A DNA stretch of 64,000 nucleotides from an uncultured Planctomycetales bacterium (GTDB lineage Bacteria; Omnitrophota; Gorgyraeia; Zapsychrales; JANLHA01): positions 23,244 through 87,243 of the forward strand of contig CAYYRJ010000005.1 in NCBI GenBank assembly GCA_964474085.1. The letters are read 5' to 3'. Each line of letters begins with the position of its first letter. Position 1 is the stretch's first letter. Below are positions 2,677 to 61,927 of the stretch, piece by piece. A program made the position numbers and the translations under genes. Under the pieces are notes generated by a model that saw only the letters and a program-made list of their open reading frames with translations, had not been told where the DNA came from and did not search any database.

Positions 2677-3486
2677 TTATAAAAGTTTACTCAACGATCT
2701 AACAAAATTTCCGTCATTATAACTTCCGACATATGCCGTTGCTCCGGCATCAATACATTCTTGTTTTGCGGTATCAATGCTGATAGCTTTTTGTCTTGTG
2801 TCGTCTGTCCCGCCTTCGACGGTTTCTTGATAACTGTAAAGGAAGATAGGGATTTTTTCAAGTTTAGGAAGACCGCGGACAATGTTGACGATATCTTTGA
2901 CGGCAATGTTTTCCAAAGGTATTTCCAGCAAGAAGACATTTGGCAGAAATGCTCCAATTTTGGGAAGAATTTGGAGGCAATCCGCCGTTGTTTCGACAGT
3001 ATAATCTTGTTCTTGGAGGTGTTTGGAGATTTCTTGTATAACGCGATCTTCGACGCCGGCAATGAAAATTTTTTTGCTTTTTGTTAATGGTTTGGCGATA
3101 GTCGGCCCCGAGGTGACAGGTGCACTGGTAGCAAGATGTTTATTGACGGTAGCCAGCAATGTTTGCGCATCAAACGGCTTTGCAAGAAAATCCGCAACGC
3201 CCATCGAGGTAAACGTATCTGACATTTTTCCCCGCGCCGTCAAAACAATCACAGGGATTTTTGCGGTGGCCGCGTTCTGTTGAAGAGCTTTAAAAAGACC
3301 AAAGCCGTCTAATTCCGGCATCAGAACGTCGGTAATAATTAAATCTGGTTTCATGGTTTTAATTTGTTCTAATGCGATACGGCCGTTGGGGGCGGACGAA
3401 ACATCATAGCCGGCATTTTTAAGACGCTCAACAATGACATGGCTTAGGTCAGGTTCATCATCGACAACAAGAATTATTTTTGGCAT
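2677..3486 (-). CDS. response regulator: N-terminal REC plus C-terminal receiver-like domain of unknown function
   Basis: ILVVDDEPD...IITDVLMPELDGF...KP receiver signature; C-terminal half weakly REC-like. Confidence 0.7.
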   Translation of the reverse strand: MPKIILVVDDEPDLSHVIVERLKNAGYDVSSAPNGRIALEQIKTMKPDLIITDVLMPELDGFGLFKALQQNAATAKIPVIVLTARGKMSDTFTSMGVADFLAKPFDAQTLLATVNKHLATSAPVTSGPTIAKPLTKSKKIFIAGVEDRVIQEISKHLQEQDYTVETTADCLQILPKIGAFLPNVFLLEIPLENIAVKDIVNIVRGLPKLEKIPIFLYSYQETVEGGTDDTRQKAISIDTAKQECIDAGATAYVGSYNDGNFVRSLSKLL

Positions 3487-3668
3487 AAGAAAACCTCGGT
3501 TTAAATATTAACGAGGCATTGTAGCCGTCTTCCTATTTAATCACAAGAAAAATATAGAATGCTTTTTTAAAAAAAGCATGAATCAACTTTGTTTTTTTTG
3601 TCTCTGAAGTAGAATTAAAGAGTTTGTTAAAGCTTTTGCAGAATTTGTTGCACAACAATGGAGGCGCG

Positions 3669-4037
3669 ATGAAAAAGATTTTGATTGTTGAAGATGAACT
3701 CGACTTATTGACAATACTCAAACAACGCTTGGAACATCACCATTATGAAGTTTTGGAAGCGTCTGACGGAGAAGAGGGGCTAAAAAAAGTCGAGGAAAGC
3801 AAGCCAGACTTGATTATCCTTGATATTAAAATGCCAAAGCTCGACGGGTATACCTTTATTAAGGAAATGCGCACCAAAAAAGAAAATGCCAAAATTCCGG
3901 TTATCGTATTAACAGCGCACGCAAATTTGGATTCTTTGTTTAAAGTTGAAGGAGTAACAGCGTACTTTACAAAACCGTATGAGACGCAAACAATATTGGC
4001 AGCGATTGAAAATGCTTTAAGTTCTGCCGCAAAATAG
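3669..4037 (+). CDS. single-domain response regulator (CheY-like REC)
   Basis: Internal ATG 4 nt after GGAGG; KILIVEDE...LIILDIKMPKLDG...TKP receiver motifs; no output domain. Confidence 0.8.
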   Translation: MKKILIVEDELDLLTILKQRLEHHHYEVLEASDGEEGLKKVEESKPDLIILDIKMPKLDGYTFIKEMRTKKENAKIPVIVLTAHANLDSLFKVEGVTAYFTKPYETQTILAAIENALSSAAK

Positions 4038-4061
4038 AAAAGTAGGAAAGTGGAGAATAAT

Positions 4062-4089
4062 TTGCACGTCGTTGTCATTATGCTATAAT
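4062..4089 (+). promoter_or_regulatory. sigma70-like promoter (TTGCAC, 16-nt spacer, TATAAT) upstream of the GalT-like pair
   Basis: -35 TTGCAC 4062-4067 and -10 TATAAT 4084-4089, about 50 nt upstream of ATG 4142. Confidence 0.4.
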
Positions 4090-4141
4090 CGCTCTTCTTG
4101 ATTAATAAATTGGTGGGTGTTTAATCGTTTTTTAAATATAT

Positions 4142-5146
4142 ATGCCAGAACTACGTAAAGATCCGGTTATCGGGCGTTGGGTCATTATTGCTACTGAAAG
4201 AGCAAGACGGCCTGGTGTTTTTATCGATTCCCAAAAGAATACTTTTGATTCGGGGCATTGTTCGTTCTGTGACAATCAGGAAAAAGAAATTTATGCAGTG
4301 TATCCTCAGCCAGGCGGCCCGTGGAAAGTCCGTGTTGTCGAAAGCGGTACGCCTCTTTTGTCGACCCATGGAAAGTTTAGCCGAAAAGGTCACGGTCTTT
4401 ATGATGTGGTCAATGATTACGGCAGCCATGAGGTGGTCATTGAAACGCCGGAACATATTGCCAACATGGCGGATTTAAGCCAGGAACAAATTCGCATGGT
4501 TTTTGAAACCTACGCTGTCCGTTACAATGAACTTGAAAAAAACGCCAATTTTCAATATGTCATTGCTTACAAAAATTACGGCTGGGCGGCAGGTTCTCGT
4601 CGCATTGGGCATTCGCGTTCGCAGATCATTTCTACGTCGGTTATTCCTTTTAGCGCCAAAGAAAAACTTGCCGGAGCCAAAAAATATTATAATTACCGCG
4701 AACGCTGTCTGTATTGCGACATGATTGCCCAGGAGCTTGAAGCTAAGGTCCGCATCATTGCCGAGAGCGAACATTTTGTGGCGATGACACCGTTTGCGCC
4801 GCGTTTTATTTTTGAAATTTGGATTCTTCCCAAGAAGCATCATTGCGATTTTGGCAAAGGTGTTCTCGGACATGAGCATGATTTAGCGGGGTTGATCAAA
4901 GTCCTTTTGATGAAATTAAAAAAAGGATTGGATGACCCGGCGTATAATTATGTCATTCATTCTGCGCCATTTCGTCATGGGGAAAAATCTACGAAGTGGA
5001 AAACATTGGCTGAGGATTATCATTGGCATATCGAACTTTTGCCGAGATTAACGCGTGTGGCCGGTTTTGAGCGGGGTTCCGGATTTTATATTTCTTCGAT
5101 TCCACCGGAAAGTGTTGCGGACTTTTTGCGGGAGGTCAAAGTTTAA
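4142..5146 (+). CDS. GalT-like hexose-1-phosphate nucleotidyltransferase family protein (HIT superfamily), variant copy with HSRSQ in place of the H-x-H-x-Q motif
   Basis: 334 aa; CxxC zinc pair, C-terminal YHWHIELLP, GalT-family collinearity; residues 157-161 are H-S-R-S-Q (Arg where the nucleophilic His is expected). Confidence 0.7.
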   Translation: MPELRKDPVIGRWVIIATERARRPGVFIDSQKNTFDSGHCSFCDNQEKEIYAVYPQPGGPWKVRVVESGTPLLSTHGKFSRKGHGLYDVVNDYGSHEVVIETPEHIANMADLSQEQIRMVFETYAVRYNELEKNANFQYVIAYKNYGWAAGSRRIGHSRSQIISTSVIPFSAKEKLAGAKKYYNYRERCLYCDMIAQELEAKVRIIAESEHFVAMTPFAPRFIFEIWILPKKHHCDFGKGVLGHEHDLAGLIKVLLMKLKKGLDDPAYNYVIHSAPFRHGEKSTKWKTLAEDYHWHIELLPRLTRVAGFERGSGFYISSIPPESVADFLREVKV

Positions 5147-6150
5147 TGTCAGAAGTAAGGAGAGATCCGGTTATTGGCCGTTGGGTGATTGTCGAACAGC
5201 GCGAAAAGTCTTTGGGCCCTGCGGATTATGAAAAAGAGCCGCATGTTATTAAGCAGGCGGCGGTTTGTCAGTTTTGTGCAGGCCGTGAAGCGCAAACTCC
5301 ACCGGAAGTCGACGCAATTCGGCCGGGCGTGTATGCGCCCAATGCGATAGGCTGGCAGGCGCGTGTTGTCCCCAATAAATTTCCGGCACTGCGTATTGAA
5401 GGCGATTTGGGCCGTCGGGGCGTAGGGCTTTATGATATGAGCAATGGCGTAGGAGCTCATGAGGTTTTGATCGAAACGCCAGAGCACGCAAAAAATTTTG
5501 CGGATTATTCCGTTGATGAAGTCGTCAATGTCCTTAAGCTTTATCAAAGCCGCTCAGCGAGCTTGGCTAGAGATAAACGTTTTAAGTACATTATGATCTT
5601 TAAAAATTATGGCCAATCGGCCGGCGCCTCTGTTGAGCATGCGCACAGCCAGATTATTGCTTTGCCGATGGTGCCCAAATATGTCGCCGAAGAATTGGAA
5701 GGCGCAAAACAGTATTACGATTTTCGCGGGCGTTGTGTGTTTTGCGATATGATACAGCAAGAGTATCAGGACCAGCGACGGATTATTACCAGCAATGACG
5801 GGTTTATCAGTTTTTGCCCGTTTGTCCCGCGCTTTCCGTTTGAAAGCTGGATTTTCCCCAAAGACCATGGTTGCGACTTTGTCACTTTGCAAGACAAAGA
5901 GCGACGGGAATTGGCGGAAATTCTCAAAAGTGTTCTGTTGCGGATAAAGGTTTGTTTATCGGATCCTTCTTATAATTTTTATTTGCACGTCACTCCTGTG
6001 GATTACGAAAATCCGCAGAGCTATCATTGGCATATTGAAATTGTTCCGCAGTTGACCCGCGTTGCCGGGTTTGAGTGGGGGACCGGTTTTTATGTTGTCC
6101 GCACCGCCCCATCGGTTGCCGCCGAGCATTTGCGCGGCGCGATTTCTTAA
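5146..6150 (+). CDS. GalT-like hexose-1-phosphate nucleotidyltransferase family protein (canonical HAHSQ motif)
   Basis: 334 aa paralog of the upstream gene; start overlaps its stop (TAATG); CxxC, H165-A-H167-S-Q169, YHWHIEIVP. Confidence 0.75.
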   Translation: MSEVRRDPVIGRWVIVEQREKSLGPADYEKEPHVIKQAAVCQFCAGREAQTPPEVDAIRPGVYAPNAIGWQARVVPNKFPALRIEGDLGRRGVGLYDMSNGVGAHEVLIETPEHAKNFADYSVDEVVNVLKLYQSRSASLARDKRFKYIMIFKNYGQSAGASVEHAHSQIIALPMVPKYVAEELEGAKQYYDFRGRCVFCDMIQQEYQDQRRIITSNDGFISFCPFVPRFPFESWIFPKDHGCDFVTLQDKERRELAEILKSVLLRIKVCLSDPSYNFYLHVTPVDYENPQSYHWHIEIVPQLTRVAGFEWGTGFYVVRTAPSVAAEHLRGAIS

Positions 6151-6197
6151 GTCTCGTTCTTAAACATAAAAATTTCATTAACAAAAAGTAACATTAA

Positions 6198-7217
<1,020 letters not shown>

Positions 7218-7235
7218 TTGTCAGATGTTCGCACC

Positions 7236-7270
7236 GGGGGATGGCTGTTTTAAGCCATCCCCCTTTTTCT
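7236..7270 (+). terminator. rho-independent terminator after gap
   Basis: GGGGGATGGC / GCCATCCCCC 10-bp stem, 8-nt loop, followed by TTTTTCT. Confidence 0.7.
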
Positions 7271-7272
7271 GT

Positions 7273-7797
7273 ATGAGAAAATTAACTCACGAAGAGATTG
7301 TCAGCCGTCAACAAGCTAATCCTCAGAAACCTCTGGGGTTTACGGTTCTTCTTAATGATATTCGTAGTCTGCATAATGTCGGTTCTGTTTTTCGCACGGC
7401 CGACGGGATTGGTGTTGAAAAAATCTGGCTTTGCGGCATTACCGGGTATCCGCCGGATTCACAAATTACAAAAACCGCACTCGGCGCAGAAATGCGCGTG
7501 CCCTGGAGCCATGCGTATGATGCCGTTTCGGTCGTAAGGGACCTTAAAAAAAACGGTTATCAAATTGTCCTTGTAGAACAGACCGACAGCAGTGTTTCGT
7601 ACCATGATTTTTTGCCGACGGCGCCGGTGTGTCTGATTCTTGGTAATGAAATAGAGGGGGTATCCGATCAGCTCGTCGATTTAGCTGATGCGTCTGTTGA
7701 AATCGAAATGGCTGGACATAAGAATTCTTTAAATGTCGGCGTAGCTCTAGGAATCGTTGGATACCATTTTCGAAATTGTTTGAAAACAACAATTTGA
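7273..7797 (+). CDS. SpoU/TrmH-family RNA 2'-O-methyltransferase
   Basis: Internal ATG just after the terminator; SpoU motifs (LLNDIRSLHNVGSVFRTAD, CLILGNEIEGVS, NSLNVGVALGI). Confidence 0.7.
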   Translation: MRKLTHEEIVSRQQANPQKPLGFTVLLNDIRSLHNVGSVFRTADGIGVEKIWLCGITGYPPDSQITKTALGAEMRVPWSHAYDAVSVVRDLKKNGYQIVLVEQTDSSVSYHDFLPTAPVCLILGNEIEGVSDQLVDLADASVEIEMAGHKNSLNVGVALGIVGYHFRNCLKTTI

Positions 7798-8942: not shown

Positions 8943-9755
8943 ATGTTGAGTATAAAAAATAAAAACCAAGCGATCGGCGTTTTTGATTCGGGCTTAGGCG
9001 GCTTGACGGTTGTCAAAGCGCTGATGCGCCGAATGCCTCAGGAAGACATCGTGTATTTTGGCGATACTGCACGCGTTCCTTATGGGACAAAGTCACGGGA
9101 ATCGATTATCCGTTTTTCGAAAGAAAACGTAGCCTTGCTTTTAAAGCGACAAGTCAAAATGATTGTCGTTGCGTGTAATTCCTCGTCGAGTCATGCCTTG
9201 GCCACTTTGCACGAAACTTTTGATCTGCCGATTATTGGCGTCATTGAGCCGGGCTGTCGCGCCGCTGCGAAAGCCACTAAAAATAAAAGAATTGGCATTA
9301 TTGCGACACCCGCGACGATCAACAGTTACGCTTATCCGCAGGAAATCGCACGGTTAGATTCGACAATAAAAGTCATTGGCCAAGCTTGTCCGCTTTTTGT
9401 GCCGCTGATTGAAGAGGGCTGGTCTAAGAAACCTGTGACGGTGACAATCGCCAATGAGTATTTGAAAAAATTAAGCCAGTCAAAGATTGATACTTTGATT
9501 TTAGGCTGCACCCATTATCCGTTGTTAAAAAATACATTGCGTAAAGTTTTGGGCGCAAAAGTTAAGTTGGTCGATTCCGCCGAGGAAGTTGTTGTGGATG
9601 TGCGAAAAGTCTTGGAGCAGAAAGATGCTCTTAATGAAAAGACGCACAAAGGTAGTTATAAATTTCTTGTTAGTGATGAGCCGGCACATTTTCAAAAGTT
9701 GGCTCGTCGATTTTTAGGCTTTGATATTAGTAACGTGGAAAGATGCCATGTTTGA
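8943..9755 (+). CDS. murI: glutamate racemase
   Basis: GVFDSGLGGLTV, VVACNSSS and ILGCTHYP signatures. Confidence 0.85.
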   Translation: MLSIKNKNQAIGVFDSGLGGLTVVKALMRRMPQEDIVYFGDTARVPYGTKSRESIIRFSKENVALLLKRQVKMIVVACNSSSSHALATLHETFDLPIIGVIEPGCRAAAKATKNKRIGIIATPATINSYAYPQEIARLDSTIKVIGQACPLFVPLIEEGWSKKPVTVTIANEYLKKLSQSKIDTLILGCTHYPLLKNTLRKVLGAKVKLVDSAEEVVVDVRKVLEQKDALNEKTHKGSYKFLVSDEPAHFQKLARRFLGFDISNVERCHV

Positions 9756-10110
9756 GTTATCGATTAGTGGACATTTTGCTGCGGCACATTTTTTGCGCAA
9801 TTACGAAGGTCCCTGCAAAAATTTGCATGGCCATACGTGGAAAGTCGAAGTGACGATACAGTCGGACAAACTCAACGATATTGGGTTGGTTGTTGATTTT
9901 CGCGACTTAAAACAAAAGCTCAAACAAATTTTGATGCCCATCGACCACGTCTGCCTCAATGATTTGCCGTATTTTGACGATGTCAATCCATCGACGGAGA
10001 ATCTTGCGCAATACATTTACCGCGAATTTGCAAAAGTCAGTTCACCTTTTATTTTAAAACGTGTCCGGGTCTGGGAAAGCGAGACCTCGAGTGTGACTTA
10101 TTTTGAATGA
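9748..10110 (+). CDS. queD: 6-carboxy-5,6,7,8-tetrahydropterin synthase
   Basis: 121 aa 6-pyruvoyl-tetrahydropterin synthase family (CxxxHGH motif region: CKNLHGHTW); first gene of a que operon. Confidence 0.8.
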   Translation: MFELSISGHFAAAHFLRNYEGPCKNLHGHTWKVEVTIQSDKLNDIGLVVDFRDLKQKLKQILMPIDHVCLNDLPYFDDVNPSTENLAQYIYREFAKVSSPFILKRVRVWESETSSVTYFE

Positions 10111-10763
10111 TGCCCAAAAAGTGCGTTGTCCTTCTTTCCGGCGGCTTGGATTCCGCCACCACTCTTTTTTACAGCCAAGCTAAGGGGTATCAAACGTATT
10201 GTTTGATTTTTGACTATGGCCAGCGCCATGCCAAAGAAATTTTGCAGGCGCAAAAATTAGCCCGCTATACAAAAAGTGAATACCGCATAATTAAGATTCG
10301 TCTCCCGTGGGGCGGGTCAGCGCTTTTGGACAAAAAAGTGGATCTTCCTAAAAACCGCAAGGATATGTCAGGAGAAATTCCTGCAACCTATGTTCCGGCA
10401 CGTAATATCATTTTTTTAAGTTTTGCCGCCTCTTATGCGGAAGCGCTTGGGGCCAGGGCGATTTTTATAGGCGCTAATGCGGTTGATTATTCGGGGTATC
10501 CGGATTGCCGGCCGGAATTTTATGAGGCTTTTGCACTCGCGCTTAAGCGGGGTTTAAAGACAGGCGTTGGAGGAAAACCGATCAAAATTTATACGCCGCT
10601 TATCCGCAAAACCAAAGCGCAGATTATCCGTTTAGGACAAAAACTCAAAGTGCCTTATGAGCTGACCTGGTCCTGTTACGCCGGCGGCAAAAAGCCCTGT
10701 GGGGTGTGTGACAGCTGTCTTATCCGCGCCAAAGGTTTTGCAGAGGCGAAAGTTGGTCAGTAA
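10107..10763 (+). CDS. queC: 7-cyano-7-deazaguanine synthase
   Basis: LLSGGLDS PP-loop and C-terminal CxxC...CxxC zinc motif (CGVCDSC). Confidence 0.9.
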   Translation: MMPKKCVVLLSGGLDSATTLFYSQAKGYQTYCLIFDYGQRHAKEILQAQKLARYTKSEYRIIKIRLPWGGSALLDKKVDLPKNRKDMSGEIPATYVPARNIIFLSFAASYAEALGARAIFIGANAVDYSGYPDCRPEFYEAFALALKRGLKTGVGGKPIKIYTPLIRKTKAQIIRLGQKLKVPYELTWSCYAGGKKPCGVCDSCLIRAKGFAEAKVGQ

Positions 10764-10770
10764 AAGTCTT

Positions 10771-11469
10771 ATGCAAACCGCTAAAGTTTCAGAAATTTTT
10801 GTGTCTATTCAAGGCGAGGGGCCGTATGCGGGCTTAAGGCAGGTTTTTGTGCGTTTTTTTGGCTGTCATATGCACTGCACTTGGTGTGACACGCCCGAGT
10901 CGATTGGGGACACGTCGGGCGATTACAAAGAGATGACGCTCATGCAGGTTTTTGCCAAAATCAAAACGTTGTTTAAAGACTGTCATTCGGTTAGCTTAAC
11001 CGGTGGGGAGCCGCTTTTGCAGGTGGACTTTATTAGCAAGCTTTTGCCGCTTTTGAAAAAAGCAAAGATGCCGGTTTATTTGGAAACCAGCGGTGTTCTT
11101 CATAAGGCTTTAGCTCAAGTGATTAAGAACATTGACATTGTGGCGATGGATATTAAAATGCCTAGCTCGACGGGTCAGAGGGCTTTTTGGAAGCAACACC
11201 AGGAGTTTGTCGCCACTGTTTTAAAGCATAAAAAAGATTTTTTTGTCAAAGCGGTTGTTTCAGCCAACACAGACAAAAAGGATATTTTAAAAACAGTGCA
11301 GATATTAAGTCGTGCAAAAAAAGAGGTGCTTTTTATTTTGCAGCCCAATACCTTTGATTTAGAAAAAGGTGCTGTCGAGAAATGCGATAGCTTTGCGCGA
11401 TTGTGTTTTAAAACATTACCCAACACGCGCGTTTTGCCGCAAATGCATAAATTTATGAAAATCCAATAG
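10771..11469 (+). CDS. queE: 7-carboxy-7-deazaguanine synthase (radical SAM)
   Basis: EIFVSIQGEG and CHMHCTWCDT cluster motif typical of QueE. Confidence 0.8.
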   Translation: MQTAKVSEIFVSIQGEGPYAGLRQVFVRFFGCHMHCTWCDTPESIGDTSGDYKEMTLMQVFAKIKTLFKDCHSVSLTGGEPLLQVDFISKLLPLLKKAKMPVYLETSGVLHKALAQVIKNIDIVAMDIKMPSSTGQRAFWKQHQEFVATVLKHKKDFFVKAVVSANTDKKDILKTVQILSRAKKEVLFILQPNTFDLEKGAVEKCDSFARLCFKTLPNTRVLPQMHKFMKIQ

Positions 11470-11487
11470 ACATCGGAGGCAAAGAAA

Positions 11488-11889
11488 GTGAAACAAAGAA
11501 AAAGTTCTTATGAGGGTTTGCAGTCGCACGTGCGCAACTTACCAACGCCACAGATTGAAGTTTGGGAAAACGAGTATGCCGATCGGCAGTATCAGATTAC
11601 TATCGAAATCCCGGAATTTACCTGCATTTGTCCTAAGACGGGTTTGCCGGATTTTGCGACGATCAAAATCGATTATGTCCCTGGCAAAACATGTCTTGAA
11701 TTAAAGTCGCTTAAGATGTACATCGTTTCATATCGCGATGTGGGGATTTTTCACGAGCATCTCGTTAATAAGATTCTCGACGATATTGTCAAAGCCTGTG
11801 GCCCGCGCTCGGCTACTGTTTCGGCAATTATGAATCCCCGCGGCGGCATTGCAACGACGGTACGCGCCGAATTTAAAAATAAAAAGTAA
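11488..11889 (+). CDS. queF: NADPH-dependent 7-cyano-7-deazaguanine reductase (type I)
   Basis: 133 aa; EFTCICPKTGLPDFATI (QueF Cys/QueF motif). Confidence 0.85.
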   Translation: MKQRKSSYEGLQSHVRNLPTPQIEVWENEYADRQYQITIEIPEFTCICPKTGLPDFATIKIDYVPGKTCLELKSLKMYIVSYRDVGIFHEHLVNKILDDIVKACGPRSATVSAIMNPRGGIATTVRAEFKNKK

Positions 11890-13614: not shown

Positions 13615-14955
13615 TTAATCTTTAGAAAGCAAGCTTCCAAAAACCCAGAACAAAAAAAGCGGCAAGAGTGAAAAGAGAATGCGGTTTAGCGACACGGAAA
13701 GCCACCACTTGATTTCAAAATACGTATTGACCTGATAGTACGCCACGATCACCGTCAGATAAAGCAGTAAGAATGCGGCGGTAAGAAAGTTTTTGGCCCA
13801 CAGCTTTTTGCCGCCGAGAATTAAGCCCAAGAGAAGTAACATCCACAAGCCATTCCACTTCGCACTTTTTAATTCTAGCCAAAGAAAACTTAAGATAATT
13901 TGAAACCGCTCTGCCGTTGAAGGTTTAAGGGTCGACGTTAAGCCATTGACAAATGTCTGATTGCCTGGCGAATAGAGGATGTTAAACGCAAAAGTCGGCA
14001 AGCTCGCAAGCATTAGCCCAAAGAAAAAAAGTCCGGCGCAAGTAAAAGAAAAGCTTTTGTCTTTACGTAATTTGCTCACAAGGGCTAACCCGAGAACTAA
14101 GGCGCAGAGAATAAGGGAGGCGATCAATCCTTCGGGTTTTGTAAATCCCAAAAAGCCTGACAAAAGGCCAGCGAGCAAGGCCAATGGTTTTTGGCTTTCT
14201 TTTTGCGCTTCTGTAAGAGCCACGATGGAAGCTAAAAGATAGAATGAAAGCACAATGTCGCAGTATTGGGTTGTGGCCAGCAAAATATAAAACGGCAAAG
14301 TCAAAATCAGCAAAGCCGGCAAGAGCGAAAAAATATTTTTGGTTTTTTCCCACAAAGCGCTGCTTAATAATCCGGCGGTCAAGCACGCAAAAAGAACGGA
14401 CGTGATAAAAGGTGTTGTGTCATCCGGTTTTACGCTAAACAACCAGCCCCAGACATTGATCAGCGGCAAAAGAAGCGGATAATGCGGGCTGCTGCGCCAA
14501 AGCTCGGGCGAAAAAAGATTGTGCCAATACTCGTCGGACAAGAACAAAAATTTAGCTTTAAAATTCCAAACCTGCCAGGCGTCCCAGCCGCCGTATGGAT
14601 AAAACAAGCCTTGTTTGATGACGAGAAAAAGCACGATGAGAATAAGGACCGAGAGACTGATGTTTTGCCATGTCGGTTTTGGTAAAGAAAGGCTGACTGC
14701 GTCGTTTTTTCGAAAGATAAAGCGTTGAATCATCAAAGCGATCAGAATCACAAGATGCACGCTGATAACAAACTGCGGCATAAGGCGGTTAAAAAATAAA
14801 AAGCTGGAGAATGTCAAATGGCTGCTTAATCCCAATCCCAAGCCAATACCGAGTGTGCTAGTAAGAAAAAGATTAGGGGGCGGATCTTTTTTGAACAAAA
14901 AATTTATCCACAGAATCCCGATGGCGCTGGAAATAAGAAAGGGCAAGAGGTTCAT
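13615..14955 (-). CDS. polytopic membrane protein (at least 12 TM), possible GT-C-type glycosyltransferase
   Basis: 446 aa, very hydrophobic with periodic TM segments; function inferred only from architecture. Confidence 0.35.
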   Translation of the reverse strand: MNLLPFLISSAIGILWINFLFKKDPPPNLFLTSTLGIGLGLGLSSHLTFSSFLFFNRLMPQFVISVHLVILIALMIQRFIFRKNDAVSLSLPKPTWQNISLSVLILIVLFLVIKQGLFYPYGGWDAWQVWNFKAKFLFLSDEYWHNLFSPELWRSSPHYPLLLPLINVWGWLFSVKPDDTTPFITSVLFACLTAGLLSSALWEKTKNIFSLLPALLILTLPFYILLATTQYCDIVLSFYLLASIVALTEAQKESQKPLALLAGLLSGFLGFTKPEGLIASLILCALVLGLALVSKLRKDKSFSFTCAGLFFFGLMLASLPTFAFNILYSPGNQTFVNGLTSTLKPSTAERFQIILSFLWLELKSAKWNGLWMLLLLGLILGGKKLWAKNFLTAAFLLLYLTVIVAYYQVNTYFEIKWWLSVSLNRILFSLLPLFLFWVFGSLLSKD

Positions 14956-59674: not shown

Positions 59675-61927
59675 ATGATTCCACGCGACCACACAAAACT
59701 GATCTGCGACATCGGCGAGTTAAGCGGTCTTTTTTCTGACACGCCCAGCCTAGACGGATTTCTTCAAAGAATCGTCGAAATGATCTCTTCTCACATGCGT
59801 TCGGAAGTCTGCTCGATCTACATCTATTATGAAAACACTAACCAGCTGGTTTTGCGCGCGACCAAGGGCTTAAAGCTCCAGGCTATCGGTAATGTCAAAA
59901 TGAAGTTGGGGGAGGGTTTGACAGGGATTGCGCTTAAAGAGTTGCGGCCGGTTTGCGAAAAAAATGCAAGTAAGACCCCCGGCTATCGGTATTTTCCGGA
60001 TATCGGCGAAGAGCAGTATGAATCTTTTTTGGCTGTTCCTATTCTCCGGGGAACGACGCGTATCGGTGTCGTTGTCATCCAAAATTCGCAAAAAAATTAT
60101 TTTTCAGAAGACGATATCAAAGTTTTTCGTGCGATTACCTCCCAGTTGGCCAACACGATCGAAACGGCCAAACTGCTCATCAGCTTTAACGAAAAGGCCA
60201 ATACACCCACCGACTTATCGACGGAAAAAGAGCTTAAATTCATCAAAGGCCGTGTGGGGTCAGAAGGCTTTGCGTTTGCGCCGGCAGTCGTTTATGAACA
60301 GTCTGCGATTTTTGTCCCGCCAAGCGAGGCAAATCCCAGACAGTTTTCGCTTGATGATTTTTACAGTGCTGTCGAAAAAACTGAGCAACAGCTTGAAGTC
60401 TTGCAGGCGCAGATTGAAGAAAAACTTTCGGACGTAGCGTCTTTGATTTTTACCGCTCAGATTTTGATGCTCAAAGACCAGGCTTTTTTGGATGCGATCA
60501 CCAAAGCGATTGCCCAAGGGGTTAATCCGCCGGATGCACTACGGCAGATTGTCACACAATATGCGCTGATGTTTGAAAAGCTGCCAAATCAATATTTGCG
60601 TGATAAAAAGCACGATGTGTTGGATATTGGTAATCGTCTTTTAGAAAATCTCGTCGGGGTCCTTGACGATGAACATGATCTTCATGGCAAAATCGTGATT
60701 TCTCGCCAGCTTTATCCGTCGGATATTTTGAAATTTTCTTCTTTAGGCGTTTGTGGCATTATCCTTTTAAGCGGCGGGGTCGCATCCCATTTGACTATTT
60801 TGGCGGTCTCGCTCGGTGTTCCGGTTGTTTTTTGCGAAGAGACAGCGCTTTTGAAAATATCGTCTGGTACAAAAGTTATTCTCGACGCAGATTTGGGGAA
60901 TATTTACGTCAAACCGACGCAGGAAGTCATCGAGACTTTTAAGAATAAAGAAAAGGACCGTCAGCTTGCCGCTGAGCTTAAAGCCCAGATTAAGGAAATA
61001 ACTTTAACGTCCGATGGCACTGCCGTCGAGCTAATGGCCAACATCAACCTTTTAGGCGATTTGAAAACGGCGCGGGAATACAAGGCCCAAGGCATTGGGC
61101 TGTATCGCACGGAGTTTCCTTTTATTGTCCGCAGTGATTTTCCGTCGGAAGAAGAGCAGTTTTTGGTTTACAAAAAGCTTGTTGACGGGATGCCGGGCAA
61201 GGAAATTACGTTTCGCACGCTCGATATTGGCGGCGACAAAGTCCTCTCCTATTATGACAACGGCAGCGAAGAAAACCCTTTTTTAGGGATGCGTTCGATT
61301 CGTTTTTCACTCAAGCACAAAGATGTTTTTGCCCAGCAGATTCGCGCGATTTTGCGCGCCGGGGTGGGGGCTAACATTCGGGTGATGTTTCCGATGATTT
61401 CTTCTTTGGACGAATTTTTGCAGGCCAAAGATTTTGTTTATCAGTGCGCTGATGAGCTAAAAAAAGAGGGCATCGAGAGCCTTGCCACTTTGCCGATCGG
61501 AATGATGGTTGAGCTTCCGTCGGTCATCGAAATTATCGACGAGCTTGCCGTGGCAGCGGATTTTTTTAGTATCGGAACCAATGATTTTATCCAGTATATG
61601 CTGGCCGTTGATCGAACCAATGAAAAAGTCGCGGACTTTTTTTTGCCGCATCATCCGGGGGTTTTGCGCGCTTTAGCCCGTGTAGCCCAGGCTGCTTTGC
61701 GGCATAAAAAGGACATTTCCGTCTGTGGTCTTATGTCGCATCAGGAAAAGTTTGTGCCCTATCTTTTAGGCATTGGGATACGCAAATTTAGCGTCGCCTC
61801 AAGATATCGTTACAGGATCCAAAAATCCGTCGAGGCCGTCGATATCGCTACAGCGCAAAAACACGCGCAAAATCTGCTTTCGCAAAAGCTCGTCGCTGAT
61901 ATCGAAACTTTGCTCAATAATCTGTGA
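59675..61927 (+). CDS. ptsP: phosphoenolpyruvate-protein phosphotransferase PtsP (Enzyme I-Ntr, GAF-EI)
   Basis: N-terminal GAF domain, PEP-utilizing His domain GGVASHLTILAVSLGVPVV, C-terminal PEP-binding TIM barrel (GTNDFIQY). Confidence 0.9.
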   Translation: MIPRDHTKLICDIGELSGLFSDTPSLDGFLQRIVEMISSHMRSEVCSIYIYYENTNQLVLRATKGLKLQAIGNVKMKLGEGLTGIALKELRPVCEKNASKTPGYRYFPDIGEEQYESFLAVPILRGTTRIGVVVIQNSQKNYFSEDDIKVFRAITSQLANTIETAKLLISFNEKANTPTDLSTEKELKFIKGRVGSEGFAFAPAVVYEQSAIFVPPSEANPRQFSLDDFYSAVEKTEQQLEVLQAQIEEKLSDVASLIFTAQILMLKDQAFLDAITKAIAQGVNPPDALRQIVTQYALMFEKLPNQYLRDKKHDVLDIGNRLLENLVGVLDDEHDLHGKIVISRQLYPSDILKFSSLGVCGIILLSGGVASHLTILAVSLGVPVVFCEETALLKISSGTKVILDADLGNIYVKPTQEVIETFKNKEKDRQLAAELKAQIKEITLTSDGTAVELMANINLLGDLKTAREYKAQGIGLYRTEFPFIVRSDFPSEEEQFLVYKKLVDGMPGKEITFRTLDIGGDKVLSYYDNGSEENPFLGMRSIRFSLKHKDVFAQQIRAILRAGVGANIRVMFPMISSLDEFLQAKDFVYQCADELKKEGIESLATLPIGMMVELPSVIEIIDELAVAADFFSIGTNDFIQYMLAVDRTNEKVADFFLPHHPGVLRALARVAQAALRHKKDISVCGLMSHQEKFVPYLLGIGIRKFSVASRYRYRIQKSVEAVDIATAQKHAQNLLSQKLVADIETLLNNL

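Follow-up and report, generated by a model that had tools for sequence, protein, structure and literature searches.

A conserved pair of GalT-like genes in Omnitrophota, predicted to encode a catalytic and a pseudo-catalytic subunit

To our knowledge, every class I GalT (galactose-1-phosphate uridylyltransferase) and ADP-glucose phosphorylase characterised so far is a symmetric homodimer whose two composite active sites are identical. Two adjacent GalT-like genes, here called copy 1 (the upstream paralog) and copy 2 (the downstream paralog), appear to depart from this arrangement. They lie in a 64,000-nucleotide stretch of DNA from an uncultured bacterium of the phylum Omnitrophota (assembly GCA_964474085.1, contig CAYYRJ010000005.1, positions 23,244 to 87,243), which is referred to below as the window, and copy 1 has Arg in place of the nucleophilic His. 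An earlier reading of this DNA (the original prediction) proposed that the two products form an obligate heterodimer of a catalytic and a pseudo-catalytic subunit, or else that copy 1 has a changed chemistry. Conservation, complementary losses, selection and natural gene fusions strongly support the first proposal, the physical pairing being deduced from these. We put at about three in four the probability that copy 1 and copy 2 are obligate partners in one heterodimeric nucleotidyl transferase/phosphorylase of the class I GalT type (ADP-glucose-phosphorylase-like), of which only one site is functional.

Class I GalTs and the Arabidopsis enzyme At5g18200 are homodimers with active sites between the subunits (10.64898/2026.09.13.751320), and the published structures thus back the interface sites on which the original prediction relied. 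In E. coli GalT the sugar is bound by F312', V314', Y316' and E317' of the neighbouring chain (10.64898/2026.09.13.751320). The hexose-1-P site of human GALT is built from K334-Q346 of one chain and N173 and Q188 of the other (PMC5081055), and Arg48, beside residue 188, comes from the opposite chain. Molecular dynamics (MD) of the human enzyme gives intersubunit Arg48A-Phe99B and Asp98A-Arg51B contacts, with glucose-1-phosphate (G1P) held mainly by Arg48 and Arg51 (PMC8513031). The assignment of residues to a chain's own site (cis) or to that of its partner (trans) is taken here from these human and E. coli GalT papers. Since such intersubunit contacts are seen in published GalT structures, the N-terminal Arg pair and the C-terminal sugar loop would serve the partner's site, and the HxHxQ motif, the Asn strand and the alpha-phosphate Ser would serve the site of their own chain. 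Each site of a GalT homodimer is a composite of the two sets.

The locus resembles both described systems. Like the At5g18200 ADP-glucose phosphorylase (1Z84, 1ZWJ, 2H39), to which they are about 34% identical, the two proteins have a two-lobed HIT fold, a CxxC/His/His zinc site and the KNxGxxAG...HxHSQ motif, which is intact in copy 2. At5g18200, however, is a homodimer with two identical complete sites, whereas the Omnitrophota system consists of two gene products, known here from their sequences. With class I GalT (E. coli 1HXP/1HXQ/1GUP; human 5IN3) the pair shares the Pfam family and the composite active-site architecture. Unlike the pair, GalT is homodimeric and belongs to gal operons with galK and galE; the conserved neighbour of the pair is gap only.

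Copy 1 and copy 2 are 41% identical to each other (BLASTP, E = 4e-94), and both match the N- and C-terminal GalP_UDP_transf domains of Pfam (PF01087, PF02744) above the gathering scores, copy 1 with 37.0 and 31.8 bits and copy 2 with 50.1 and 45.4 bits. The TIGR00209 cut-off of 102.1 bits is passed by copy 2 (115.1) and failed by copy 1 (93.9). The top solved-structure match of both is At5g18200 (1Z84; HMMER, E = 3e-61 for copy 1 and 7e-64 for copy 2). The domains, the CxxC pairs and a YHWHIE motif in both copies agree with their earlier placement in the GalT branch of the HIT superfamily.

The codons at 4610-4624 of the window (CAT TCG CGT TCG CAG) give H157-S-R159-S-Q161 in copy 1, with CGT at 4616-4618, and the corresponding motif of copy 2 is H165-A-H167-S-Q169. 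R159 and H167 align to the At5g18200 nucleophile H186 (HMMER against 1Z84), a column that the H186G mutant chain 2H39 marks independently, and to H166 of E. coli GalT (MAFFT, K-12 sequence). The motif of copy 2 therefore lies on the E. coli motif as proposed, and in copy 1 the nucleophile is replaced by Arg, with the zinc-ligand H157 and Q161 retained. The structural comparison that the original prediction called for, with GalT and ADP-glucose phosphorylase, has the same outcome, since sequence and fold match both put R159 at the nucleophile position. Another His of copy 1 was considered for this role and rejected: the KNYG..AG....HxRSQ alignment to 1Z84 and 2H39 is unambiguous, and the loop GSRRIGHSRSQ holds only the zinc-ligand H157.

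The zinc-site residues, assigned by alignment, are C40, C43, H105 and H157 in copy 1 and C41, C44, H114 and H165 in copy 2, and each is shared by no fewer than 66 of 67 upstream and 71 of 72 downstream copies from the phylum (see below). An AlphaFold2 model of copy 1, built with 26 sequences, has a mean predicted local distance difference test score (pLDDT) of 81 and a predicted template modelling score (pTM) of 0.84. Its top Foldseek matches are 2H39, 1ZWJ and 1Z84, with template modelling (TM) scores of 0.79-0.89, which points to the two-lobed HIT half-barrel fold; against E. coli and human GalT the TM scores are 0.75-0.81 at about 21-22% identity. Confidence is low in segments 20-34, 148-153 and 305-312, and in the short segment 282-284. 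The first of these is the Arg-pair loop and the third the C-terminal loop, both of which contact the partner chain in known GalTs, and 148-153 is the loop immediately before the HIT motif. Copy 1 is thus a family member by its predicted structure, and it could not be filed as a catalytic one because H157-S-R159-S-Q161 lacks the nucleophile.

The closest named homologs of copy 1 are Omnitrophota proteins. Related loci from GTDB genomes were scanned with one genome per species, taking the best 80 of at least 590 matches, so that rarer architectures may be missed. Among these 80 loci are 71 tandem pairs in the same order, four upstream copies at contig ends and five single HxH genes, the last from other phyla (Anaerolineae, 'Ignavibacteria', Nitrospirota). 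All 71 complete Omnitrophota loci hold both genes, and the pair is never split. Together with the window, 75 further Omnitrophota loci give 76 upstream and 72 downstream copies. The nucleophile position of the upstream copies is R in 67, H in six and C in three, so that the change from His to Arg is kept in related tandem pairs and HxH is not the rule in orthologs; the downstream copies, 72 in all, have HxHxQ without exception. When the 120 best homologs of copy 1 (55-100% identity) are compared, 116 have R at position 159, two have C, one H and one L, and none differs at H157 or S160.

A neighbour-joining (NJ) tree places all 67 downstream copies included in it in one clade and the upstream copies in another, with short deep branches. 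Four HxH singletons of other phyla branch at the base of the upstream clade. The three Cys-bearing upstream copies form a single group, and the six His-bearing ones (L004 439-1413, L052, L053, L055, L057 and L060; CAT in all six) are scattered among those with Arg. Their His may be a reversion or a retained ancestral residue, His and Arg codons being one transition apart. Five of the six have S at N77 and G at S161 (E. coli GalT numbering), and the L004 copy, which is nested among Arg-bearing copies, has N at N77 with a deletion nearby and E at S161. The Arg pair is missing from the partner of every one of the six. Because of this, and because five of the His-bearing copies keep the other losses, the cis/trans asymmetry described below is independent of the change from His to Arg.

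Both genes are under equally strong purifying selection, and the upstream copy is not decaying. The median ratio of nonsynonymous to synonymous substitutions (dN/dS) is 0.047 for the upstream and 0.052 for the downstream gene (Nei-Gojobori, 23 close pairs). Across 66 genomes the upstream copies share on average 59.2% and the downstream copies 56.8% pairwise identity, and in 70% of genome pairs the upstream copy is the more conserved. All six Arg codons occur at position 159 (CGT 25, CGC 22, CGG 7, CGA 3, AGG 6, AGA 1), so Arg has been kept through synonymous change. CGY is over-represented there relative to the overall Arg usage of these genes, as is expected because the His codons CAY are one transition away. 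A sporadic mutation, a sequencing error or a decaying pseudogene might have been suspected, since CGT and CAT differ by one transition and CAT does occur in the six scattered upstream copies. With Arg in upstream copies of different species and assemblies at the frequencies given above, a dN/dS near 0.05, intact reading frames of equal length and a confidently predicted fold, this explanation is refuted, and we give it practically no weight. A correlation of identities between the two clades (r = 0.87) was set aside as a sign of co-evolution, since shared phylogeny explains it.

The losses in the two clades are reciprocal. The Arg pair R20/R23 of copy 1 corresponds to R28/R31 of E. coli GalT, R48/R51 of human GALT and R41/R44 of At5g18200, and among the 67 upstream copies with Arg at 159 its two positions are R in 65 and 62. 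In the downstream clade the same columns hold H/N/K/D and K/G/L/R; Arg occurs there in 3% and 7%, against 100% in canonical homologs, a set that was chosen on R28, R31, N77, S/T161 and HHQ and in which these columns are conserved by construction. The nucleotide-binding strand shows the opposite pattern. Its N77 column is S in 60 of the 67 upstream copies and N in 71 of 72 downstream copies, and K78, F79 and A81 are lost upstream, with K78 and F79 kept downstream. The S161 column is G/R/T upstream, with R153 of copy 1 found in only nine of 67 copies, and is kept downstream (S162 in copy 2). In the C-terminal E-W-x-T/S-G-F-Y loop, E, G, F and Y are invariant upstream, and the loop is slightly less conserved downstream. 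Both metal sites, and N153, G159 and Q168 in E. coli numbering, are kept in both clades. Residues conserved specifically in the upstream clade are R/K at E. coli positions 178/180, F277 and D292.

A test with fewer hand-chosen positions gives the same picture. Of 67 columns that are at least 85% conserved in 87 canonical homologs (the set chosen as above), 55 are kept in both clades; N77, A81, A/C160 and H166 are lost only upstream, and R28, R31 and one more only downstream. The full set of N77, S161 and the Arg pair is found in no single polypeptide and is complete only across copy 1 and copy 2. A downstream homodimer would have no Arg pair and an upstream homodimer no nucleophile, in each case at both sites; only the heterodimer would have one complete site.

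This suggests the following model. The gene would have been duplicated in an ancestor of the Omnitrophota, after which the two copies diverged. Copy 2 would have kept the cis residues N77, K78, F79, A161, S162, H165, H167 and Q169 and lost the Arg pair, and copy 1 would have kept R20, R23, the C-terminal loop and both structural metal sites and lost the cis residues (now S68, R153 and R159). In the heterodimer, one complete site would be made of cis residues of copy 2 and trans residues of copy 1, and the other would be a dead pseudo-site. The most probable role of R159 is to occupy or stabilise the phosphate pocket left vacant there, without taking part in catalysis; the preference for Arg159, and R153/R154 in the subclade of this organism, fit a side chain that fills an empty phosphate pocket. 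Copy 1 has the features of a pseudoenzyme partner, in that catalytic residues are lost, the fold is kept, selection is purifying and it co-occurs with an active paralog.

It is very unlikely that copy 1 acts alone, as a homodimer or monomer, by an Arg-based chemistry or through binding of a sugar phosphate or nucleotide, with copy 2 as an independent homodimer. With the former, copy 1 would carry out direct phosphorolysis or hydrolysis without a covalent His intermediate, and Arg would stabilise the transition state. The strong purifying selection is compatible with it, as are the retained metal sites, N145, Q161 and Arg pair, and the pocket of a copy 1 homodimer with R159 would be very basic. 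However, the Asn strand and the alpha-phosphate Ser are lost as well, and a copy 2 homodimer would lack, at both sites, an Arg pair that is 100% conserved in canonical homologs. The pair is also tightly coupled and unsplit in the 71 loci, and the residue at the nucleophile position varies between lineages (H, C, Y, S and others). A catalytic role of Arg159 is unlikely because its pocket has lost the ribose-binding Asn and the alpha-phosphate Ser and the partner supplies no Arg pair. The changed chemistry offered as the second option in the original prediction is disfavoured on these grounds.

Natural fusions of the two genes support the heterodimer. An exhaustive profile search of 1.8 billion cluster representatives, with a follow-up search, found three proteins in which an upstream-type module (module 1) is joined to a downstream-type module (module 2): P0123 (599 aa), P0271 (596 aa) and P0272 (599 aa), from three independent assemblies and with 52-56% mutual identity. 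All three genes lie directly 3' of tyrS. Behind two of them comes gap-pgk-tpiA-secG, and for the third the contig breaks off just past the fusion gene. The fusion genes thus occupy the place of the tandem pair relative to gap. In module 1, V-E-R-A-K-R-P and the V/I-A-G-F-E-W-G-T-G loop are invariant, and the CxxC, the Asn strand, the His115 equivalent and the HIT motif are gone, with Tyr, Arg or His at the nucleophile position. Module 2 starts at the CxxC and has thus lost the 40 N-terminal residues, the Arg-pair loop among them, but none of the cis residues; conservation of the C-terminal loop is lower in it than in module 1. As a Rosetta-stone case, the fusion has discarded exactly the parts that a one-site model predicts to be dispensable. 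Module 1 retains trans elements only, which also argues against an independent function of copy 1.

Several points weigh against the heterodimer model. The downstream C-terminal loop is nearly as conserved as the upstream one, which is unexpected if the pseudo-site is wholly functionless; this loop is also part of the dimer interface. The preference for Arg159 (88%), kept via synonymous changes, hints that the residue does more than mark a loss. For the Arg pair, the trans role is drawn from the human and E. coli GalT literature, partly from homology models and MD, and not from At5g18200. The AlphaFold2 model of a fusion protein, with three sequences over module 1, has a pLDDT of 72.7 and a pTM of 0.66 and leaves the packing of the modules unconfirmed. 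The substrate discussed below is suggested only by homologs with 35-40% identity and by the context of relatives, and the Omnitrophota pair itself keeps only gap. Finally, it is from the sequences that we infer the physical heterodimerisation, the catalysis at a single site, the substrate and the role of Arg159.

Some of these points could be accommodated if the pseudo-site of copy 1 were a basic effector pocket (R153, R154 and R159, with N145 and Q161 kept) for phosphate or a phospho-metabolite, a refinement of the heterodimer model that we regard as unlikely. Copy 1 would then be regulatory, like the large subunit of AGPase or GlgD, and would tune the catalytic site to glycolytic flux. The predominance of Arg at 159 in all six codons would fit, as would the retained N153, G159 and Q168 equivalents, the upstream-specific R/K at 178/180, F277 and D292, the largely conserved downstream C-terminal loop, which would face the pseudo-site, and the invariable linkage with gap. 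At position 159, however, His and Cys are also seen within the clade, distant nucleophile-less relatives have Ser, Tyr, Val, Ile, Asn or Leu there, and R153 is as rare as noted above. The downstream copy also lacks the trans Arg pair that would complete such a pocket. The fusion lineage can do without a ligand site at this place, since the cis half of its module 1 is entirely destroyed. If the effector reading were true, an allosteric NDP-glucose (nucleoside diphosphate glucose) phosphorylase would couple the use of stored or scavenged glucosyl units to flux at the level of glyceraldehyde-3-phosphate dehydrogenase (GAPDH), and this would account for the constant association of the pair with gap across the Omnitrophota.

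Copy 2, as the catalytic subunit of the proposed heterodimer, would perform a reversible nucleotidyl transfer through a covalent His167-NMP (nucleoside monophosphate) intermediate. Canonical single-copy relatives (RR/N/S/HxHxQ) have about 40% identity. The fusion partner is a GT5 starch/glycogen synthase in one of them and a GH57 domain in another. On a Margulisiibacteriota contig the canonical gene lies among GH57 genes and genes for a CBM48 protein, a GH57 branching enzyme, an NTP-transferase/PGM fusion and glycogen synthase, and on a Syntrophomonadaceae contig glycogen synthase is directly 3' of it. This context suggests an ADP-glucose-linked role for the canonical bacterial family. Because of the At5g18200 match and the glycogen context of the canonical relatives, a reaction of the type ADP-glucose + Pi (inorganic phosphate) <-> glucose-1-P + ADP is our first, still tentative, choice for the pair, and a related NDP-hexose reaction would be the alternative. 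The Omnitrophota pair has itself left the glycogen gene context, and none of ten large open reading frames (ORFs) scanned in the window is a glycogen gene. A Leloir-pathway galT operon was considered and rejected, as there is no galK or galE among the window genes examined or on the contigs L082 and L084/L085, and gap is the sole conserved neighbour of the pair in the Omnitrophota loci. The accessible part of a 2024 review of prokaryotic alpha-glucan enzymes makes no mention of the family.

Further architectures and variants occur among the related proteins. P0128 (871 aa) has two complete GalT-like modules, both with HxHxQ and R..(H/G)(Q/R)P N-terminal motifs, and a long low-complexity N-terminus; it may be an intramolecular 'homodimer' and is possibly eukaryotic. 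The Cys-bearing upstream copies (L006, L008 and L068, at about 6001-7020) are monophyletic and read H-x-C-S-H, so that Cys at the nucleophile position co-occurs with His in place of Gln. Two contigs labelled 'Ignavibacteria' (L075 3955-4980 and L076 6001-7026) carry single-copy HxHxQ genes without the Arg pair (K-L and M-H), and no partner gene is present in the fetched flanks; either the partner sits elsewhere or the Arg pair is dispensable there. The 50%-identity cluster representatives P0121-P0270 include more nucleophile-less GalT-like proteins (S, Y, C, V, I, N or L), many with the Arg pair, and also further HxHxQ proteins without it. The split into enzyme and pseudo-subunit may be wider, or may have arisen more than once.

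The coordinates of the locus and of the related loci are collected in the table.

Table. Positions of the GalT-like gene pair, its motifs and its operon elements in the window, and of the fused and canonical relatives on other contigs
Feature	Position	Strand	Remarks
Copy 1 (upstream paralog), GalT-like/ADP-glucose-phosphorylase-like, 334 aa	4142..5146	+	without nucleophilic His
Copy 2 (downstream paralog), GalT-like/ADP-glucose-phosphorylase-like, 334 aa	5146..6150	+	candidate catalytic subunit
Copy 1 E19-R20-A-R-R23-P24, N-terminal RxxRP Arg pair	4196..4213	+	retained
Copy 2 E20-K21-S-L-G24-P25, Arg-pair position	5203..5220	+	lost (K, G)
Copy 1 S68-G69-T70, in place of N-K-F strand (E. coli GalT N77-D78-F79)	4343..4351	+	
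Copy 2 N77-K78-F79, nucleotide-binding strand	5374..5382	+	retained
Copy 1 loop S152-R153-R154-I-G-H157-S-R159-S-Q161	4595..4624	+	degenerate HIT motif; Arg153 at alpha-phosphate Ser position
Copy 2 intact HIT motif H165-A-H167-S-Q169, nucleophile H167	5638..5652	+	codons CAT GCG CAC AGC CAG
Copy 1 R305-V-A-G-F-E-R-G-S-G-F-Y-I317, C-terminal loop	5054..5092	+	corresponds to E. coli GalT K311-E317 sugar loop
Promoter-like TTTGCA-17 nt-TATAAT, extended -10 TG	4061..4089	+	about 52 nt 5' of copy 1
Shine-Dalgarno-like GGGAGG for copy 2	5130..5135	+	in 3' end of copy 1, 10 nt 5' of ATG
gap (glyceraldehyde-3-phosphate dehydrogenase)	6213..7217	+	third gene of conserved module
Intrinsic-terminator-like hairpin and T-run, 3' of gap	7236..7272	+	11-bp stem, 8 GC pairs; hairpin 7236-7263
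Fusion loci, upstream-type + downstream-type module	L086 6001-7800 (GCA_003558915.1 PWOP01000182.1); L087 4001-5791; L088 3305-5104		
Canonical relatives, fused or glycogen-linked: P0188 (814 aa), P0147 (875 aa), P0175 (436 aa)	L089 1713-13038; L090 6001-8490		

The two genes and gap are predicted to form one operon. The stop codon of copy 1 (TAA, 5144-5146) and the start codon of copy 2 (ATG, 5146-5148) overlap by 1 nt, which confirms the tandem arrangement of equal-length genes as first described, and the GGGAGG before the copy 2 ATG is consistent with translational coupling to copy 1. The position of gap directly 3' of the pair and the sigma70-like promoter were also found as reported, the promoter-like site having 10 of 12 consensus matches and being the top site within 3950-7400, a consensus match only. 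The identity of gap follows from its Gp_dh_N and Gp_dh_C domains, found in the related contig L082, which is syntenic with the window and whose copy 1 is 87% identical. The hairpin downstream of gap is the probable 3' end of the operon. Copy 1, copy 2 and gap would thus be co-transcribed from the promoter-like site to this terminator, with copy 2 translationally coupled. Across the phylum, the intergenic distance of the pair is -20 to +13 nt in 53 of 67 measurable cases, and 62 of the 63 loci with an identified gap homolog have that gene directly 3' of the pair and in the same orientation.

Just 5' of the operon lie two divergent genes for response-regulator-like receiver proteins (2677-3486, - strand; 3624-4037, + strand), which are present in five related loci only and fall outside the conserved module. 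The mechanically called ORF of a SpoU-type methyltransferase (7183-7797, + strand) begins with a TTG that lies within the 3' end of gap, and the hairpin at 7236-7263 falls inside it; its true start is probably farther downstream, and the L082 homolog has 175 aa. After murI and an Amidase_3 gene, the window carries a queD-queC-queE-queF cluster for the preQ1/queuosine precursor (9721-11889, + strand), with an identical gene order in L082. Elsewhere in the window are a 445-aa ORF with zero Pfam matches at E <= 1e-5 (13615-14955, - strand) and a gene for a GAF-domain PtsP-like enzyme I of the phosphotransferase system (PTS; 59675-61927, + strand).

Heteromers of an enzyme and a pseudoenzyme paralog are known from other families, among them the small and large subunits of AGPase and GlgC/GlgD. 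Trypanosomatid AdoMetDC/prozyme, PRMT1 ENZ/PRO and the Tad2/Tad3 tRNA deaminase are further cases (PMC5201418, 10.1101/776112, PMC8217354). In the prozyme type the dead paralog is under purifying selection, co-occurs with the active one and is needed to build or activate the functional oligomer; the first two features are seen in the Omnitrophota pair and the third is proposed for it. The prozyme-type heteromers differ from the pair in fold and family, and the evidence for the pair is reciprocal cis/trans loss and not demonstrated activation. Within the HIT superfamily, Asw/Wpkci is an avian W-linked Hint paralog without the HIT motif that has been proposed to heterodimerise with Hint. Unlike the members of the pair, this eukaryotic protein is of the Hint branch and is not encoded in an operon, and the role proposed for it is dominant-negative inhibition, not completion of an active site. 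In the literature searched, no pseudoenzyme or heterodimer was found in the GalT branch of the HIT superfamily, and nothing relevant on Omnitrophota GalT. The evolutionary principle is familiar, but its occurrence in this family is new, as are its fixation throughout a phylum and the clean division of cis and trans residues followed by a fusion.

The locus indicates that a whole phylum uses an asymmetric enzyme composed of a catalytic and a pseudo-catalytic paralog. If this is true, copy 1 would give the GalT branch of the HIT superfamily its first pseudoenzyme subunit. The annotation of both genes, now named galactose-1-phosphate uridylyltransferase or DUF4931, would have to be corrected, and notice would be drawn to a little-studied bacterial family that lies beside glycogen synthase and GH57 genes in other phyla. 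Heterodimers of human GALT Q188R and wild-type chains, with one crippled site, are reported to retain partial activity. The Omnitrophota pair would be a natural test of which GalT residues serve their own site and which serve that of the partner, and would bear on dominant-negative galactosemia alleles.

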